Assembly: GCF_988242995.1 (NCBI RefSeq)
Contig: NZ_OZ547043.1
Length of the DNA: 64,000 nucleotides
Reading direction: 5' to 3' (one strand)
Under the pieces are notes generated by a model. That model was not told where the DNA came from and did no database searches. It worked only from the letters and a program-made list of their open reading frames with translations. Position 1 is the stretch's first letter. Each line of letters opens with the position of its first letter. This document shows positions 2,208 through 54,260 of this stretch, piece after piece. The position numbers and the translations under genes are program-made.

Positions 2208-3245
2208 TTACTTCGCGAGAGTCACTGTGGAGGGAGAGGCTTGCTCAAATCCTCGTTCAAGGATTTCCAGATTGGTAAGAACTTCAGATTCCTTGACGTA
2301 ATTTGGCGCACCGTTGGTGATGGTTTGATACAACGCATCATAAACGCGCCCGTAATCGCCCATCTCCGGCTTCATCTCTTCTCTGACCGTCACACCCTCG
2401 TCATTGACATACTCCAGCACACCGACCGAATCATCCGCTGCGAATCCCGGTTCGCCCGGCATAATATTAGCCTTGAGGCTGGTTTCCTGCTGGTCGATAC
2501 CGTATTTAATAAACGAACCTTTCTTACCGTGAACGATAAATTTCGGATAATCGATTTTCACCAGATGGCTGGTTTTGACGATGGCTTTCAGGTCGCCATA
2601 AAACAGCTGCGCTTCAAAGGTGTCGTCAGGATTGGCTTTATTACGCAGGCTGCGGATGTCATAAGCGACGTGATCCGGGCGACCGAACAGAGAAATAATC
2701 TGGTCCATCGTATGCACACCAAGACCATAGAACGCGCCATCCTGCGGCAGCCCAGGTTTGGTTTCTGCCACCGGGCGGTAATAGTCAAAATGGCTTTCCA
2801 CTTCGACAATCTCTCCCAACTTGCCACTTTCAATCGCTTTTTTCGCTGTCAGGAAGCAGGAATCAAAACGACGATTCTGATACGGCGTGACGGTCAGTCC
2901 TTTGCTTTTCGCCAGCGCAAACAGCTCCTTCGCCTGGGCAAGCGTCGGGGTGAACGGTTTTTCGACCAGCACATTTTTCCCGGCTTCCAGCGCGCGCTTC
3001 GCGTACTCGAAGTGGCTGTCTGCATGGGTGCAGACCACAACCAGCTTAACATCGGGATCGTTTAGTACTTCGTCGAGATCGCTGGTGAAATGGATATGAG
3101 AGTAAATGGGGGCCTGTTCTTCCGGCTTCGCATGGCGGCGAAAAATATGCGCGACATGCCAGCTATCCTTGCGGTTAAGTACATACGGCAGATGGTAACG
3201 GGTGGTGCTTTTGCCGAAGCCAATAAAGGCGCAGTTGATGACCAT
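2208..3245 (-). CDS. yhhX: Gfo/Idh/MocA-family NAD(P)-dependent oxidoreductase
   Basis: 345 aa ORF, N-terminal Rossmann motif (IGFGKS), matches remembered YhhX. Confidence 0.9.
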   Translation of the reverse strand: MVINCAFIGFGKSTTRYHLPYVLNRKDSWHVAHIFRRHAKPEEQAPIYSHIHFTSDLDEVLNDPDVKLVVVCTHADSHFEYAKRALEAGKNVLVEKPFTPTLAQAKELFALAKSKGLTVTPYQNRRFDSCFLTAKKAIESGKLGEIVEVESHFDYYRPVAETKPGLPQDGAFYGLGVHTMDQIISLFGRPDHVAYDIRSLRNKANPDDTFEAQLFYGDLKAIVKTSHLVKIDYPKFIVHGKKGSFIKYGIDQQETSLKANIMPGEPGFAADDSVGVLEYVNDEGVTVREEMKPEMGDYGRVYDALYQTITNGAPNYVKESEVLTNLEILERGFEQASPSTVTLAK

Positions 3246-3367
3246 GATTTCGTCCTTTTTAAGGTGATTATTTACACCTTAGCGCAAAGCGGACGTGGTT
3301 CCTACTGGAGTGCGCATAACGAACACAAGCACTTCCCGTGGATAAATTGAAAACGAAAGATCAAAAA

Positions 3368-3457
3368 AAAAGCCAGCACCCGGCTGGCTAAGTAATACTG
3401 GAAGCAATGTGAGCAATGTCGTGCTTTCAGGTTCTCCGCGAGGGTCTTCCTGATCGC
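3368..3457 (-). ncRNA. ryhB: RyhB iron-sparing small RNA
   Basis: Plus strand carries the reverse complement of the RyhB sequence (gcgagggtcttcctgatcgc ... aaaaagccagcacccggctggc) ending in a Rho-independent terminator hairpin plus U-run; located between yhhX and yhhY as in K-12; ends approximate. Confidence 0.85.
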
Positions 3458-3495
3458 AAGACAATAATAATCATTCTCATTCGCACTTGTCCAAC
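3458..3495 (-). promoter_or_regulatory. ryhB promoter with Fur box
   Basis: Minus-strand sequence GAGAATGATTATTATTGTC immediately upstream of the RyhB 5' end resembles the 19-bp Fur consensus GATAATGATAATCATTATC. Confidence 0.6.
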
Positions 3496-3579
3496 ACTTT
3501 TTGCAAAAAAAATGCATTTGACTCGCATTTGAAAGTCAATGATGTTGAAAGGGACATTTACCCCAAAGAGGACAAAGGA

Positions 3580-4068
3580 ATGAGTGAGATAGTGATACGC
3601 CATGCTGAAACGCGCGATTACGAGGCCATCAGGCAGATTCACGCCCAGCCGGAGGTGTATTGCAACACGCTACAGGTGCCTCATCCTTCCGATCATATGT
3701 GGCAGGAGCGACTCGCCGATCGTCCCGGCATCAAGCAACTCGTCGCCTGTATTGATGGAGACGTCGTGGGCCATCTCACCATTGACGTGCAACAGCGCCC
3801 ACGCCGCAGTCATGTTGCAGATTTTGGTATTTGTGTCGACTCCCGTTGGAAGAATCGCGGCGTCGCCAGCGCCCTGATGCGAGAGATGATTGAAATGTGC
3901 GACAACTGGTTGCGGGTAGATCGTATTGAGCTAACGGTGTTCATCGATAACGCGCCAGCAATTAAGGTCTATAAAAAATTTGGATTTGAGATTGAAGGGA
4001 CTGGCAAGAAGTACGCATTACGTAATGGTGAATATGTCGATGCGTATTATATGGCGCGGGTGAAGTAA
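3580..4068 (+). CDS. yhhY: GNAT-family N-acetyltransferase
   Basis: Internal ATG of ORF 3487-4068 gives 162 aa starting MSEIVIRHAETRDY; GNAT motifs (RWKNRGVASALM); matches remembered YhhY. Confidence 0.88.
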   Translation: MSEIVIRHAETRDYEAIRQIHAQPEVYCNTLQVPHPSDHMWQERLADRPGIKQLVACIDGDVVGHLTIDVQQRPRRSHVADFGICVDSRWKNRGVASALMREMIEMCDNWLRVDRIELTVFIDNAPAIKVYKKFGFEIEGTGKKYALRNGEYVDAYYMARVK

Positions 4069-4303: not shown

Positions 4304-5482
4304 ATGAGTAATATTGTTTACCTGACAGTAACGGGAGAACAACAAGGAAGCATCTCCGCAGGTTGTGGGACTTCTGAGTCTACAGGTAATCGCTGGCAGA
4401 GCGGGCATGAGGATGAAATATTTACATTCTCATTCTTAAATAGTATTACTAATACGGGGCTTGGTTCACAGTTCCATGGTATAACATTTTGTAAATTAAT
4501 TGATAAAAGCACTCCATTATTTATTAATTCCATTAACAATAATGAACAATTATTTATGGAATTTGACTTCTATCGAATAAATAGATTTGGTAGATGGGAA
4601 AAGTATTATTATATACAACTAAGAGGCGCTTTTTTATCGGCTATTCATCATCAGATCATTGAAAATCAACTGGATACAGAAACATTAACTGTTAGTTATG
4701 AATTTATCCTCTGTCAACATCTTATCGCAAATACCGAGTTCAGCTATTTGGCACTCCCTGAAAATTATAACTGTTTGTTTTTACCAAATTCAAAAAACCA
4801 AACAAATAATCGTTTCAAAACGTTAAACAGCAAAGCTATTGGCAGGCTACTTGCTGCTGGTGGCGTATACAATGGGAACATTGAAGGATTCAGAGATACT
4901 GCGGAAAAACTGGGTGGAGATGCAATAAAAGGCTATGATCAAATACTAAATGAAAAAACAGCGGGCATAGCGATAGCAACAGCATCTATTCTTTTAACAA
5001 AGCGTTCTAATGTTGATACATATACAGAAATAAATAGTTACTTAGGCAAACTTAGAGGTCAACAAAAACTTCTTGATGGTATAGACATAATAGAAACAAT
5101 ATACATTAAGAGACCTTCAAAAGACTTAGCTAACTTACGAAAGGAGTTTAATAAAACTGTAAGAAAAAATTTTCTTATCAAACTTGCAAAAACCTCCGAA
5201 GCATCTGAAAGATTCAACGCCGAAGACCTTTTAAGAATGAGAAAGGGCAATGTTCCTCTAAATTATAATGTTCACCATAAACTATCTCTAGATGATGGTG
5301 GTACTAATGATTTCGAAAATTTAGTATTAATCGAAAACGAACCATATCATAAAGTTTTTACTAACATGCAATCACGAATAGCTAAGGGAGTATTAGTAGG
5401 TGAAAGCAAAATCACTCCCTGGGCCATTCCATCTGGCTCAATTTATCCTCCCATGAAAAATATTATGGAACCCACAAAATGA
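4304..5482 (+). CDS. yhhZ: Hcp-like protein fused to a C-terminal HNH/colicin-DNase-type nuclease domain (polymorphic toxin)
   Basis: 392 aa; N-terminal Hcp-like segments (FTF, IDKSTP, FYR); C-terminal HNH motif VHHKLSLDDGGTNDFENLVLIENEPYHKVF resembling colicin E9 DNase; AT-rich. Confidence 0.85.
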   Translation: MSNIVYLTVTGEQQGSISAGCGTSESTGNRWQSGHEDEIFTFSFLNSITNTGLGSQFHGITFCKLIDKSTPLFINSINNNEQLFMEFDFYRINRFGRWEKYYYIQLRGAFLSAIHHQIIENQLDTETLTVSYEFILCQHLIANTEFSYLALPENYNCLFLPNSKNQTNNRFKTLNSKAIGRLLAAGGVYNGNIEGFRDTAEKLGGDAIKGYDQILNEKTAGIAIATASILLTKRSNVDTYTEINSYLGKLRGQQKLLDGIDIIETIYIKRPSKDLANLRKEFNKTVRKNFLIKLAKTSEASERFNAEDLLRMRKGNVPLNYNVHHKLSLDDGGTNDFENLVLIENEPYHKVFTNMQSRIAKGVLVGESKITPWAIPSGSIYPPMKNIMEPTK

Positions 5483-5973
5483 TGACTAAAACCCAAATAA
5501 ATAAATTAAAAAAAATGATGAATGATTTAGACTATCCATTTGAAGCACCGCTCAAGGAATCATTTATTGAAAGTATAATCCAAATAGAATTTAATTCTAA
5601 TTCAACTAATTGCCTGGAGAAATTATGTAATGAAGTTAGTATTCTTTTTAATAATCAACCTGATTATCTTAATTTTTTAAGAGCAATGGATGGATTCGAA
5701 GTTAATGGATTACGATTATTTAGCCTCTCGATTCCAGAACCTTCAGTTAAAAACCTTTTTACCGTAAATGAATTTTATAGAAATAATGATGATTTCATAA
5801 ACCCTGATCTACAAGAACGGTTAGTGATCGGGGATGATAGCATTTCAATATTTACTTATGACATTAAAAGTAACTTTTTTGAAATTAGAGATAATATTGG
5901 CACCGAAAATATATTCAGTTCGTTTAGTGATTTCTCTTCATTCTTAAACGAAATCATGGACAGTTGTTCATAA
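5479..5973 (+). CDS. yrhA: putative cognate immunity protein of the YhhZ nuclease toxin
   Basis: 164 aa ORF whose ATG overlaps the yhhZ stop (ATGA); AT-rich; position matches K-12 yrhA, but here uninterrupted. Confidence 0.7.
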   Translation: MMTKTQINKLKKMMNDLDYPFEAPLKESFIESIIQIEFNSNSTNCLEKLCNEVSILFNNQPDYLNFLRAMDGFEVNGLRLFSLSIPEPSVKNLFTVNEFYRNNDDFINPDLQERLVIGDDSISIFTYDIKSNFFEIRDNIGTENIFSSFSDFSSFLNEIMDSCS

Positions 5974-47765: not shown

Positions 47766-50497
47766 CCCTCCTGTTTTTTCAGCAGCAGGATGCTTAAGCC
47801 CATCACCAGCGGGATGGCTATCAGCAGCGGGATAAAAAGTTGCCACAAATCAGTCAGATCCAGCGCTTTCGAGAACGTCCCGCGGGCGATAGTCAGAAAA
47901 TGACTGGTCGGGTAAACCTCGCCGATCCAGCGTCCTGGACCTTCCAGCGAAGCTACCGGATCGATCATCCCGGAAAACTGTGTCGCCGGGATCAACGTGA
48001 TAATCGCCGTACCGAAAATGGCGGCAATCTGGCTTTTCATAAAGGTGGAGATCAGCAGCCCCATTCCGGTGGCAATGATGATATACAGCAGCGCCGCCAG
48101 GGTGAGCGTCAGGAAACTACCTTTATGCGGTACGCCAAACACAAACACCGACAGGCCGCAGAGCAGGAAAAAGTTCAGCATCCCCAGCGCGATGTACGGC
48201 AGCTGTTTGCCAAGCAAAAATTCGCTACGGGTGGTGGGTGTCACGTAAAGGTTGATAATCGACCCTAGCTCTTTTTCCCGCACCACGCTAAGAGCGCTTA
48301 GCATTGACGGGATCATCATCAGCAGAAGCGGGATCACCGCCGGAACAATCGCTGGCAGGCTTTTTACATCCGGGTTATAGCGATAGCGCGTCTCAATATT
48401 CATCAGCCCGTTTTGGCTGGCGGGCGTGGATTGTCGGCTCGCTACATCCTGTAACCAGCTCTGGTGCATAGCCTGCACGTAGCCTTTTACCGTTTCGGCG
48501 CGGCTCGGCATCGCACCATCGATCCAGACACCGAGTTCCACGGGTGTACCACGCGCGATATCGCGCCCGAAATTGGGAGGGATCTCAATCGCCACCGTGA
48601 TATCGCCCGCACGCATTCGACGATCAAGCTCGTCATAACTGGTGAGCGGCGGCTGTTCGATAAAGTAACGGGAACCGGAGAGATTGAGCGTCCACGCCTG
48701 GCTACTGACGGTCTGGTCGCGGTCAAGCACCGCAAAGCGCAGGTTTTCCACATCCATATTGATGCCGTAACCCATTATCAGCATCAGGATCACCGTTCCC
48801 ATCAGCGCCAGCGTCGAACGTACCGGATCGCGTCGCAGTTCCAGCGCTTCGCGGCGGCTGTAGCTAAACAGACGGCGCAGGCTAAATCCCTGACGCGGCG
48901 CGTGGGTGGTGTCGTGTATCACGGGCGGCGCTTCGGCTTCGTTGCTCTGCCCTGCCGCTTCCTGCAAATAGGCGATAAATGCCTCTTCCAGACTTGCGGC
49001 TCCGCGTTTCTCAACCAGTTCCTGCGGTGTACCGCTGGCAAGCACTTTTCCGGCGTGCATCAGGGAGATGCGGTCGCAACGTTCCGCTTCGTTCATAAAG
49101 TGGGTGGAGATGAAGATAGTCACTTTGTCCTGACGCGAGAGATCGACCATCAACTGCCAGAACATATCCCTCGCCACCGGATCGACACCAGAAGTAGGCT
49201 CATCGAGGATTAACATCTCCGGGCGATGAATCACCGCCACCGCCAGCGAAAGCCGCTGGCGAATGCCGAGCGGTAATGACTCAGGCAATACATCTTCAAC
49301 GTCGTTGAGCTTAAAACGCTCGCTCATTTCAGCCACTCGCGCGGGAATTTCCGCTTCCGGGATATGAAACAAACGGGCATGTAACTCCAGGTTTTGCCGC
49401 ACGGTGAGTTCGTTATAGAGCGAAAACGCCTGCGACATATAGCCCACCCGACGGCGGGTATCGATATCTTTTGGATCAACCGGTTGCCCGAACAGCCACG
49501 CCTCACCTTCGCTGGCAGGCAGCAGTCCGGTAAGCATTTTCATGGTGGTGGATTTACCGCAGCCGTTCGAACCGAGGAATCCAAAAATCTCCCCGCGTGG
49601 AATGCGGAAATTGACGTGATCAACGGCAATGAAGGAACCAAAACGCATGGTCAGATCGCGCGCTTCGATGGCAATCTCTGCGTTTTCCGGTTGATATGGT
49701 GGGATCACTACCGCCTGATGCGCCTGGCGTTGCGCTTGCGGTAACAGATTTATAAACGCCTCTTCCAGCGTCGCACTTTGCGTTTGCTGCCGCAGCTCTT
49801 CGGCGCTGCCGGTTGCCAGCACTTCTCCGGCATTCATCGCTACCAGCCAGTCGAAGCGTTCGGCCTCTTCCATATAGGCGGTGGCGACCAGCACGCTCAT
49901 ATTGCTCTGCCGCTGGCGAATACTGTCGATCAGATCCCAGAACTGGGCACGGGAGAGCGGGTCAACCCCCGTTGTTGGCTCATCAAGAATCAACAGTTCC
50001 GGGTCGTGGATTAACGCACAGCACAGCCCAAGTTTTTGCTTCATCCCGCCGGAGAGTTTACCTGCCGGACGATCGCGAAACGGTGCTAACCCGGTGCTGG
50101 TCAGCAGCTCATTAATTCGCACTTCCCGCTCCGCTTTGTCGTGACCGAACAGGCGGGCGAAAAAATCGACGTTTTCATACACCGACAAGGTGTGGTAGAG
50201 GTTTTTGCCCAGCCCTTGCGGCATCCAGGCGATGCGCGGGCAAACGTCACGGCGATGCTTCGGGTCGCGCATATCGCCGCCCAGCACGATCACATTGCCC
50301 TGCTCAATGACACGAGCACCGGAAATCAATGACAATAAACTCGACTTCCCGACGCCATCCGGACCAATCAGCCCAACCATGCAGCGGGCCGGAATATCGA
50401 GAGTGATATTGTTCAGCGCAACGGTTTTTCCATAATGCTGGCTCACGCCCGCCAGTTGCGCGACAGGCGGGACGGGAACCAGTTCCAGATGCGTCAT
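47762..50497 (-). CDS. rbbA: ribosome-associated ATPase, fused tandem ABC ATPase plus permease domain
   Basis: 911 aa; two Walker A motifs ([18 protein letters not shown]), two LSGG signatures, C-terminal ABC-2 membrane domain. Confidence 0.95.
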
Positions 50498-51561
50498 TGC
50501 GGCAACCTCACCACCAGGTCGTCAGGCCACGGAAGTTCTTCATTCACCCGCACCCACGCTACGCCCGGCAAACCGGTTTTGACATATTCCAGATGCTGCT
50601 GGAGTAATTCCGGTGGGATACGCGCTTTGACGCGGAACATCAGTTTCAGCCGCTCATCGCTGGTTTCGACGGTTTTTGGCGTGAACTGGGCGACGCTGGC
50701 GACAAAACTGATGGTTGCAGGAATACGCAGATCTGGCGCGGCATCGAGGATCAGCCGGGCTTCACCGCCCAGTTTCAGCGTGCCCGCCTGTTCGGTTGGC
50801 AGGAAGAAGGTCATATAGACGTCGCTCAGATCGACCATATTCAGCACCCGACCGCCTGCCGCCAGCACTTCCCCTGGCTCGGCAACCCGATACTGCACGC
50901 GTCCGTCACGCGGGGCTTTCAGTTCGCTGTCATCGATATCTGCGGCAATGCGCCGTTCAGTGGCTTGTGCGGCTTCGACGCGTGTTTGCGCCTGAATGAT
51001 ATTGGTGCGTGCCGCTTCTATAGCGGCTTTAGAAGCCGAAACCTGGGCTTTTGCTGATTCCAGCGCAGCTCGGGCGCTCTCAGCGGCGGCGCGATCGTCA
51101 TCCAGCTGTTGCGCAGAAATAGCCCCTCGTTGGGCGAGCGAGCGGGAACGCGTATGACGTTTGGCAACGGAGTCCAGTTCGGCCTGGCGTTGATTGACCA
51201 GCGACTGTGCGGCACGAGTTTCGCTTTGGCGTTGCTCCAGCAAAGCCTGCGCGGCGGCAACGGCGCTTTGTGCTTCTTTGATTTGCGCGATGGCTTCCAG
51301 TCGCTGTTCCTGCAACACGCGAGTATCCATCTTCGCCAGCACTTCACCTTCGCGAACAAACTGGCCTTCTTTCACCAGAATGGTGTCGATACGCCCGGCA
51401 ATTTTGCTGGCGATATCCACTTCCGTCGCTTCAATGCGCCCATTGCTGACGGCAAAGCCTTCCGGCACACCCGCTGGGCGCAACAGCCACCACGCCACGA
51501 TAGCGGCCACCGCCAGTAACCCGACAACCCACCACGCCAGATGGCGCTTACTCTTATCCAT
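50494..51561 (-). CDS. yhiI: HlyD-family membrane fusion protein
   Basis: 355 aa; N-terminal TM anchor then long coiled-coil; 4-bp overlap with rbbA. Confidence 0.92.
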
Positions 51562-52029
51562 AATCGACCCGCCATAATCCCTGTAAGCAAACGACGCGTG
51601 TTACAACTGCCGCCGAACGACGTTCAGCGGATTCTTCCATCCGGGATAAGAAGGAAACGGCAAATACGACCAGCGCGCAGAGCATTGAGCGCCAACGTGG
51701 AAGGCTTAGTGAAAACGGGTAGTAATGTTGTCATCATCAGCATTCCTGGCCGTAAATGAAACACGCATACTCATAAGTGTGATCTATAAAACTGGCTGAC
51801 AAAACGGTATCCATCCTGTTGGATAGCGTTTCACGCCTGTTCAGTTGCAGGAACAGAGCATTCCTTATTACGTTTTATCAACAGTCTCAACCAGATAGTA
51901 ACATTAATATTCATGTTGTCTATGGTTCAGAGCTGTAACATTGTGCGCCTTCTAATCAAAGGCATAAGTCCATTTTTGTTTTTTTCATGCTGGTAAGACT
52001 TCCAGGGAGTGGTTATCTCAGGCCCTGCA

Positions 52030-52745
52030 CCAGGGTTAATTTGGCAATAAATATCCTCCGGCATAGCCGGAGGTTTTTCAAATGCGCCTATAAGGCTCTC
52101 TTACCAGCCGCGCCCTAACAGGCGCACACGATCTGACATTTGCATCCAACTTCGTTACTTACGGCCCGTAAACGGGCTGCCCGGATAGGGAATCGATAAC
52201 TGCTCTCCCATTTTATCCTCTTCAAGCTGGTGCTTTATGTAATCCTGTATCTTCGCCGTGTTCTTACCCACTGTATCGACGTAGTACCCTCTGCACCAGA
52301 ACTCCCTGTTCCTGTATTTGAATTTCAAATCACCAAACTGCTCGTAAAGCATCAGACTGCTTTTCCCTTTCAGATATCCCATAAAGCCGGATACGCTCAT
52401 TTTGGGCGGGATCTCCACAAGCATATGGATATAATCTGCACAGCATTCAGCTTCCAGAATCCGTACGCTTTTCCACTCACACAGCTTTCTCAAAATACTG
52501 CCTATTGCTCTACGCTTCTCTCTGTAGAACACCTGTCTTCGGTATTTTGGCGCAAAAACTATGTGATATTTACAGTTCCATCGGGTGTGCGCTAAGCTCT
52601 TTTCGTTCCCCATTGGGACCCCCTTTTGATTTCTTGTTTGACACTTGCAGTTGCCAGACCGCAAAGTGTTTTAACAAATCAAAAGGGGTTTTAATAACTG
52701 GCTCAAAGCTGAAAGCTTTCCGGAACCCCCAGCCTAGCTGGGGGT
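52030..52745 (-). mobile_element. IS200-like insertion sequence (IS200/IS605 family, tnpA only); boundaries approximate
   Basis: About 0.7 kb element containing a Y1/HUH transposase gene, with a perfect GC-rich hairpin (aacccccagc cta gctgggggtt) at the tnpA-upstream end as in IS200 left ends; absent from the K-12 arrangement. Confidence 0.7.
52155..52613 (-). CDS. tnpA: IS200/IS605-family Y1 (HUH) transposase TnpA
   Basis: 152 aa from MGNEKSLAHTRWNCKYHIVFAPKYRR; HUH-type motif (YIHMLV) and catalytic Tyr region; start refined from ORF 52155-52664. Confidence 0.85.
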   Translation of the reverse strand: MGNEKSLAHTRWNCKYHIVFAPKYRRQVFYREKRRAIGSILRKLCEWKSVRILEAECCADYIHMLVEIPPKMSVSGFMGYLKGKSSLMLYEQFGDLKFKYRNREFWCRGYYVDTVGKNTAKIQDYIKHQLEEDKMGEQLSIPYPGSPFTGRK

Positions 52746-54260
52746 TTTCTGTGCACAATTATGCATGCTGAACATTCTTCCAGCATGTTTACTGTCACGG
52801 GCGTTAAGACCTAAAACTGTCCCCGTTTCACCTATGCGTTCTCTTCCACCATTACCGTTATGTGCAACAACTTGATTTATACCTAACATTTGTGAGCATG
52901 CTAATAGTTCTTCAAGTTTCGGTCTGTAATCTGTCGAAACAGAAAAATAACGATTAAAGGATCGACAAGAGATAGCCCGGCTAGTTTTAAACTTTTTACC
53001 ATTAATGATGGCATGATGCTTCTTATTAATAATTGCCGCTAATTCGACCGGATCGAGAGCATTGGTCATTTCATCAATAGAGACTGTTATCGGTCCTATA
53101 ATGTAACGTTTTCGCTGATCATCAAAAGTTATCCCATGATGATTTGCCATTATTTTGTATTTGGGGTCATAGAAACATACAGGATAATCTTTTATCCCAG
53201 CGTAGGTATCCTCATCAAGTGGTTTCATACGCGTGAAGTTCTGCATATAGTTACCATTGCAATTCGTTTCATGATTACCAGCTAATACATGAACATTTTT
53301 ATTAATACTCATTATGCGTTTTAACAAATCGATGATAAATTGATCGCCACAGATATTACTAAATCGATCGCCGGTTTGGTCACCCAGAAACGTACATGGC
53401 GTCACTGCGCCCTGATTAATAACTAAATATGGCTGAAGACTTTCTAAAACCACATCTCTTCTGTTCAGAATACTGATTATTGTATTAACATTAATGTCTA
53501 GTTCCTCATTAATTTTTTCCCTTAATAAAACGTTGAGAACTTCATCTTCTATATTAAGCAACTGGCTAAGAAAATTTACTTCTTCAGCCATAATTCCCAA
53601 ATGTCCCGTTGCGAAAAGCGCGTACAAAACTGCACCGACTGAGCCATCGGTATCACCAAAATAGGTTGGTCTGGTACTTGTGGGATCAACGGGTGAACAA
53701 TTGGAGAAATAGATTCTGTCAGCGAACTGGGGTTTTATAATTGTTTCGAATTTAATATCAGATACATTGTATTGCGATATTTTCCAGTTCCAGATGGGTT
53801 TGTACGACTCAGTAACTGCAACATCATTAGCATTATCATTTACTGTCATATTATTAAGTAAATAAACAATGCTGCACCAATTAATATCGGTATCATCAAG
53901 AGGGCAACCGTAATTTTTACTATTAATTGTCACAATAAACTGATAACTATTATTCCTACGTAGAATATGGGCACGCATGCCCGATAGCATACTATATTTT
54001 TCTGAATGATTCGTTTCTATGGTAAATGAAATTTTGTCATCTTGAAAAGATTGTTGGAAACGTTCTATTTGCCAATCATCAATTTTTTCCACAACTTCAC
54101 CGAGCATTGTCCTGGCAATACTTGATATATCATCACCTATACCATTTGCAATATACCCAAACAGTTCTTTAGTGAAGTTAGTAACATGCTCTTGCACCAT
54201 ATCATTTGTTGCGATAGTCGTTATACTGTCGTTAGTACCTGCCACAGTTCCAATTTTCAT
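52734..54260 (-). CDS. yhiJ: DUF4049-type protein with C-terminal PPP-like metallophosphoesterase motifs; 3' end abuts or is altered by the IS200 end
   Basis: 508 aa; motifs GDTDG, GDQTGDRF, LAGNHE in PPP order; SD GAGGT upstream; paralog of the next gene; AT-rich. Confidence 0.8.
   Translation of the reverse strand: MKIGTVAGTNDSITTIATNDMVQEHVTNFTKELFGYIANGIGDDISSIARTMLGEVVEKIDDWQIERFQQSFQDDKISFTIETNHSEKYSMLSGMRAHILRRNNSYQFIVTINSKNYGCPLDDTDINWCSIVYLLNNMTVNDNANDVAVTESYKPIWNWKISQYNVSDIKFETIIKPQFADRIYFSNCSPVDPTSTRPTYFGDTDGSVGAVLYALFATGHLGIMAEEVNFLSQLLNIEDEVLNVLLREKINEELDINVNTIISILNRRDVVLESLQPYLVINQGAVTPCTFLGDQTGDRFSNICGDQFIIDLLKRIMSINKNVHVLAGNHETNCNGNYMQNFTRMKPLDEDTYAGIKDYPVCFYDPKYKIMANHHGITFDDQRKRYIIGPITVSIDEMTNALDPVELAAIINKKHHAIINGKKFKTSRAISCRSFNRYFSVSTDYRPKLEELLACSQMLGINQVVAHNGNGGRERIGETGTVLGLNARDSKHAGRMFSMHNCAQKTPS

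Follow-up and report, generated by a model that had tools for sequence, protein, structure and literature searches.

The small RNA gene ryhB between yhhX and yhhY on an Escherichia coli chromosome: anatomy, distribution and annotation of a known element

The ryhB locus and its RNA

The window, by which we mean the whole stretch of 64,000 nucleotides that was analysed, is part of an Escherichia coli chromosome. In its first few kilobases a gap of 334 bp (3246-3579) lies between yhhX, an oxidoreductase gene (2208-3245, minus strand; NCBIfam equivalog, 779 bits), and yhhY, an N-acetyltransferase gene (3580-4068, plus strand; NCBIfam equivalog, 372 bits), and this gap holds ryhB on the minus strand. 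The ryhB gene is divergent from yhhY, and the order of yhhX and yhhY is the same as in K-12 and in PMC2189734. The features located in the gap were the following.

3363-3457, minus strand: ryhB gene (RyhB sRNA), by identity to K-12 b4451 and by Rfam RF00057
3438-3457, minus strand: 5' stem-loop (nt 1-20), outside the Rfam model; predicted, the MFE fold pairing nt 1-4 with nt 17-20
3397-3424, minus strand: conserved 28-nt core (nt 34-61), the target-pairing region, with exact matches in at least 120 loci
3390-3396, minus strand: A/U-rich linker AUUACUU just before the terminator hairpin, read from the sequence
3371-3389, minus strand: Rho-independent terminator hairpin AGCCAGC-CGGGU-GCUGGCU, by terminator scan, RNA fold and the Rfam structure line
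3363-3370, minus strand: U tail; nine U follow GCUGGC, the first of which is counted in the stem
3464-3469, minus strand: -10 hexamer TATTAT, by promoter scan
3488-3493, minus strand: -35 hexamer TGGACA, by promoter scan
3460-3478, read from 3478 to 3460: Fur box GAGAATGATTATTATTGTC, 16/19 match to the 19-bp consensus GATAATGATAATCATTATC
3466-3484: second Fur-box register GCGAATGAGAATGATTATT, 14/19 by hand count, shifted by 6 bp and overlapping the first box
3498-3512: A/T tract upstream of the -35, TTTTTGCAAAAAAAA on the plus strand, holding a one-base length difference from K-12

The minus strand of 3363-3457 reads GCGATCAGGAAGACCCTCGCGGAGAACCTGAAAGCACGACATTGCTCACATTGCTTCCAGTATTACTTAGCCAGCCGGGTGCTGGCTTTTTTTTT. 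Transcription starts at the G at 3457 and ends inside the T-run, nt 90 being at 3368 and nt 95 at 3363. A sequence-only reading of the same DNA had drawn the element from 3368 to 3495; its start coincides with nt 90, where the classical RNA of 90 nt ends, and its end just takes in the -35.

To identify the element, we performed a covariance-model scan of the whole window with Rfam 15 at gathering thresholds, which two families passed, RyhB (RF00057) and STnc490. The single RyhB match in the window ran from 3428 to 3364 on the minus strand and spanned model positions 1-67 of 67, without truncation, at 83.1 bits (E 3.6e-14), well above the gathering score of 55. Because the Rfam model leaves the 5' third of the RNA uncovered, this part was compared with the K-12 reference. 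In the annotation of K-12 MG1655, ryhB (b4451) is a 95-nt ncRNA on the minus strand at 3580922-3581016, between yhhX and yhhY, and alignment of the intergenic regions showed that the window from 3457 to 3363 is identical to it at 95/95 positions. The sequence-only reading had proposed a full RyhB sequence on the minus strand of the yhhX-yhhY gap, to be checked by the Rfam RyhB model and by alignment to a RyhB reference; both checks upheld it, the flanking genes were confirmed by their NCBIfam equivalogs, and its description of the element as a known one is apt. A tRNA scan of the window found none. We consider the segment 3363-3457 on the minus strand to be the canonical E. coli ryhB, a Fur-repressed, Hfq-dependent, trans-acting sRNA of about 90-95 nt, with a probability of about 98%, and no observation spoke against it. 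It is a known and well-studied gene, correctly identified here and not new.

RNA folding reproduced the terminator hairpin and the small 5' stem, and the single-stranded core with which RyhB pairs to its targets, GCACGACAUUGCUCACAUUGCUUCCAGU, is present at 3397-3424 on the minus strand. The energy of the whole-RNA fold was no better than that of shuffled sequence (z = -0.59), so fold stability alone would not flag RyhB and was given no weight. A weak overall fold energy is usual among sRNAs with a long single-stranded seed. The terminator that had been claimed for RyhB was recovered by the terminator scan as a 7-pair stem from 3389 to 3371, AGCCAGC/GCTGGCT with 5 GC pairs, followed by the T-run. 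The nine T after GCTGGC agree with PMC4509938, in which RyhB is assigned a polyU of length 9, Hfq binding is shown to need a polyU at the 3' terminus, and about 20% of polymerases fail to stop at the ryhB terminator. By analogy with the concept set out in the same paper, we infer that the Hfq-binding module has its internal part in the AUUACUU linker.

A second, weak terminator-like hairpin is located at 3324-3340 on the minus strand, about 25 nt downstream of the ryhB terminator, where CACGGGAAGTGCTTGTG is followed by TTCGTTATGC; it includes a 1-nt indel relative to K-12 at 3334. This hairpin might catch the approximately 20% of ryhB readthrough before it enters yhhX in the sense direction.

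Promoter, Fur box and variation within E. coli

The promoter scan returned a single sigma-70-like promoter on the minus strand, with 10/12 consensus matches and an 18-nt spacer between the -35 and the -10. The -10 hexamer ends 6 nt before the start G at 3457, and the spacing of both the promoter and the terminator is as expected. The Fur box spans the -10 hexamer and reaches -3 of this promoter. When the whole 64 kb window was searched with the 19-bp consensus at up to 3 mismatches, the box at 3460-3478 was the sole site, and none was found in 100 shuffles. The Fur-box-like promoter proposed from the sequence is therefore present, as a 16/19 box lying over the -10 of a sigma-70-like promoter. 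The 19-bp box is identical to the K-12 site, which is the one for which Fur binding was shown in PMC2189734. In that study the ryhB site cluster has 25.2 bits, is listed at position -15, was positive by gel shift, and comprises four overlapping Fur sites within 31 bp (PMC2189734). The register shifted by 6 bp, which in several Citrobacter and Enterobacter loci is the one that matches best, would fit this cluster of overlapping sites. As in E. coli, Fur-Fe(II) acts directly to repress the ryhB of Klebsiella (PMC3423075).

Further upstream, the A/T tract at 3498-3512 is possibly UP-element-like in function. On the plus strand, no sigma-70 promoter for yhhY was found within 3458-3579 at the scan threshold. 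An inverted repeat, TTGACT-N10-AGTCAA, was observed at 3518-3539 on the plus strand, in the interval that separates the ryhB -35 from the start codon of yhhY. The repeat may serve as a regulator site or as part of a yhhY promoter, or its arms of only 6 bp may have arisen by chance.

To place the locus within the species, we used the intergenic region 3246-3580 (335 bp) as a query against complete E. coli genomes. A match was found in 5424/5426 genomes, in all cases on chromosomes, with a median of one place per genome. In 5358 of the 5424 genomes with a match, identity over the 95-nt RNA was 99% or higher. The whole intergenic region was at least 99% identical in 492 complete genomes (about 9%) from unrelated sources, and 100% identical among the matches listed. 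Some genomes departed from this pattern: two of the 5426 had no ryhB match, a few had two or three ryhB places (5429 places in 5424 records), and in NZ_CP195448.1 the match was only 91.3% over 104 nt, which suggests that its ryhB carries a small insertion.

K-12 MG1655 and the window agree throughout in the RNA, its strand, the yhhX/yhhY flanks, the -35, spacer and -10, the terminator and the Fur box. Five intergenic differences were found, all of them outside the RNA. Two are in the promoter region, namely the base at -1 (3458), which is T here and C in K-12, and a tract upstream of the -35 that is longer by one T, 8-T rather than 7-T (the A-run 3505-3512 on the plus strand; alignment column 68). 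The other three are downstream of the terminator, at 3351, 3334 and 3267. It is conceivable, and in our judgement unlikely, that the lineage-specific promoter allele with T at -1 and the 8-T tract measurably alters the basal expression of RyhB or the tightness of its repression by Fur, in which case strains with the promoter allele would have a different iron-sparing set-point. As an alternative of this kind, the Fur cluster could also control yhhY, the divergent acetyltransferase gene 122 bp away.

The same differences could be taken to mark a decayed or silenced copy, in which the RNA is intact and the promoter changes (T at -1; 8 versus 7 T) abolish expression or Fur control; such a reading would draw on the placement of all five differences outside the RNA and of two in the promoter region. 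However, neither the two promoter hexamers, nor the 18-nt spacer between them, nor the 19-bp Fur box differs from K-12, the intergenic allele recurs in the 492 complete genomes from unrelated sources, and the RNA is still under strong purifying selection. Since the promoter elements and the Fur box match K-12 and the allele is widespread, we regard a silenced promoter as extremely improbable. The wide occurrence of the allele in complete genomes argues that it is a maintained, functional variant.

The canonical ryhB gene also has to be weighed against a coding interpretation, in which an open reading frame (ORF) overlapping the gene is a real small-protein gene and the similarity to the RNA is secondary. 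The sequence-only reading had stated that no ORF covers the element, which is not literally so: mechanical ORFs overlapping ryhB are present in the six-frame listing, three on the minus strand (3279-3464, 61 aa; 3302-3517, 71 aa; 3427-3642, 71 aa) and one on the plus strand (3416-3532, 38 aa). Yet these overlapping ORFs had no Pfam match, even at E 0.1, and every one of the three on the minus strand crosses one or more single-nucleotide indels with respect to K-12 (alignment columns 68 and 246). Because of these indels the minus-strand frames are not conserved even within the species, whereas the 95-nt RNA is invariant. In addition, the ORFs 3302-3517 and 3427-3642 begin upstream of the mapped promoter, the RyhB RNA contains no AUG, and no CDS is annotated over ryhB either in K-12 or by PGAP. 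The coding interpretation was rejected on the absence of a Pfam match and on the frame-breaking indels relative to K-12, and hardly any weight is left to it.

Relatives in other bacteria and pairing with sodB

To examine the conservation of RyhB beyond E. coli, we scanned its 28-nt core (nt 34-61) against a collection of species-representative genomes, and it was found exactly in at least 120 loci of Enterobacterales, Aeromonas and Vibrionaceae. The genera among the matches listed included Escherichia, Citrobacter, Enterobacter, Klebsiella, Yersinia, Serratia, Photorhabdus, Pantoea, Dickeya, Aeromonas, Photobacterium, Aliivibrio, Salinivibrio and others. Many genomes among these listed matches gave two core loci, as expected for RyhB paralogs.

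Fur boxes and terminators were counted in the 117 listed loci that had enough flanking sequence. A Fur box with at most 5 mismatches was located within 150 nt upstream of the core in 116/117 of them, compared with 18/585 (3%) of random 150-nt windows from the listed loci, in which the controls peaked at 9 mismatches. The box typically ends 31-55 nt before the core in the listed loci. A GC-rich hairpin with a T tail followed within 70 nt after the core in 101/117 loci, and the 16 exceptions were all from Vibrionaceae. The terminator stems varied in a compensatory manner, as AGCCAGC/GCTGGCT, AGCCCGC/GCGGGCT, GGCCGGC/GCCGGCT, AGCCCAC/GTGGGCT and GGGCCAG/CTGGCCC. From this conservation in the listed loci, it follows that the RNA core, the terminator and the Fur box travel together across three orders.

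The core, the Fur box, and the terminator with its U tail are common to E. coli RyhB and to the paralog pairs of other Enterobacterales, such as Salmonella RyhB-1 and RyhB-2 (IsrE), Klebsiella ryhB-2, and those of Yersinia, Photorhabdus and Serratia. Unlike these, E. coli has a single ryhB copy, and the second copies elsewhere in Enterobacterales often have another terminator stem (GCCCGC/GCGGGC) and another 5' region. In Klebsiella, ryhB lies between yhhX and yhhY and there is a separate ryhB-2 (PMC3415461).

The RyhB of Vibrionaceae (Photobacterium, Aliivibrio and Salinivibrio) does not differ in the 28-nt core, and the Fur box that lies upstream has 4-5 mismatches. A terminator within 70 nt after the core was found in 0/16 Vibrionaceae loci, so the RNA of these loci has a longer 3' portion. 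V. cholerae RyhB is more than 200 nt long. PrrF1 and PrrF2 of Pseudomonas and FsrA of Bacillus are functional analogs, that is, Fur-repressed sRNAs that lower the expression of iron-using proteins; they are not known to be sequence homologs of RyhB. In two Salinivibrio loci (L062 and L082), two RyhB cores were found in tandem on the same strand, about 300 bp apart, each with its own upstream Fur-box-like site of 4-5 mismatches, which is an apparent tandem duplication of ryhB.

Pairing with a target was analysed for sodB, using the K-12 sequence from -60 to +30 since the window is without sodB. RyhB nt 38-46, GACAUUGCU (3412-3420, minus strand), can form nine uninterrupted base pairs with positions -4 to +5 of K-12 sodB, a segment that includes the AUG. 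Judged on statistics alone the run is modest, being reached by 25 of 1000 shuffles, and it draws its weight from its position over the AUG, which is the published one, and from the published work. The duplex of the RyhB core with sodB had an energy of -18.0 kcal/mol against a mean of -12.2 for shuffled sequences, of which 31/1000 were as good. RNAduplex on the full-length RyhB and sodB from -60 to +30 gave a long weak duplex (-34.8 kcal/mol) that 43 of 500 shuffles equalled, and because this calculation failed to discriminate, the longest perfect run and the core-only duplex were adopted as tests.

Proposed mechanism, annotation and neighbouring loci

Among bacterial sRNAs RyhB is a textbook case, and within the Fur iron regulon it forms the central post-transcriptional arm. 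It has about 50 targets and an iron-sparing role, acts with Hfq through translation block and RNase E-dependent decay, and activates shiA and cirA (PMC4666370). The identity of the gene, the anatomy of its promoter, Fur box and terminator, its conservation across species and its complementarity to sodB were observed here. What is said of Fur binding, of induction by iron starvation or fur deletion, of Hfq-dependent stability, of RNase E-coupled decay and of the targets comes from the literature on K-12, whose RNA is identical (PMC4666370; PMC4509938; Fur binding, PMC2189734), and by analogy would hold for this copy too.

When iron is sufficient, Fe2+-Fur would bind the site cluster over the -10, reaching to -3, and block the transcription of ryhB. 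When iron is scarce, Fur would leave, and sigma-70 RNA polymerase would transcribe the gene, starting at 3457 and stopping in the U tail that follows the terminator hairpin (3371-3389). Hfq would then bind the A/U-rich linker, the terminator hairpin and the 3' polyU, and present the single-stranded core (nt 34-61) to mRNAs. The targets would be mRNAs for non-essential iron-using proteins, such as sodB, sdhCDAB, acnB and ftnA, on which pairing over the ribosome-binding site or start codon would block translation and lead to RNase E-dependent decay of the mRNA and the sRNA together. The net effect of this repression would be that iron is spared, while a few targets (shiA, cirA) would be activated instead.

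The presence of ryhB in the window adds no new biology, and the practical point is one of annotation. In a PGAP RefSeq record with 100% identical DNA, only yhhY and yhhX are annotated at the locus, and the eight RefSeq matches listed for the 95-nt query all had no feature under the match. Among the records inspected, ryhB was named only in the curated K-12 record. It was thus fair to call the element easy to miss, given that the inspected PGAP RefSeq records with 100% identical DNA have no feature over ryhB. Because no feature is annotated, a scan based on an ORF track or on PGAP would see an "empty" gap of 334 bp or spurious ORFs of 61-71 aa. Pipelines that seek novel intergenic elements should first mask Rfam matches such as ryhB.

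The other Rfam family found in the window, STnc490, belongs to a different locus. An IS200C-type insertion sequence is located at 52037-52770, between yhiI (50494-51561) and the gene of a DUF4049 protein (52734-54260), whose stop codon abuts the end of the insertion sequence. The STnc490 match (52623-52746, minus strand; 144.6 bits) is closely followed, on the same strand, by a Y1_Tnp transposase ORF, tnpA (52155-52613, minus strand; Pfam PF01797, 127 bits). A single place covering at least 80% of 51900-52900 was found in 0/5426 complete E. coli genomes, and the insertion site therefore looks strain-specific.

Closer to ryhB, yhhZ (4304-5482, plus strand) encodes a protein of 392 aa that begins with a tube domain of the Hcp/TssD type (TIGR03344, 119.6 bits; Pfam T6SS_HCP), and its C-terminal extension of about 245 aa had no family match. 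In the K-12 annotation it is named "putative endonuclease YhhZ". It is followed by yrhA (5479-5973, plus strand; 164 aa), which had no Pfam match and overlaps yhhZ by 4 nt. The yhhZ-yrhA pair, two genes from ryhB, looks like an Hcp-toxin fusion with its cognate immunity gene.
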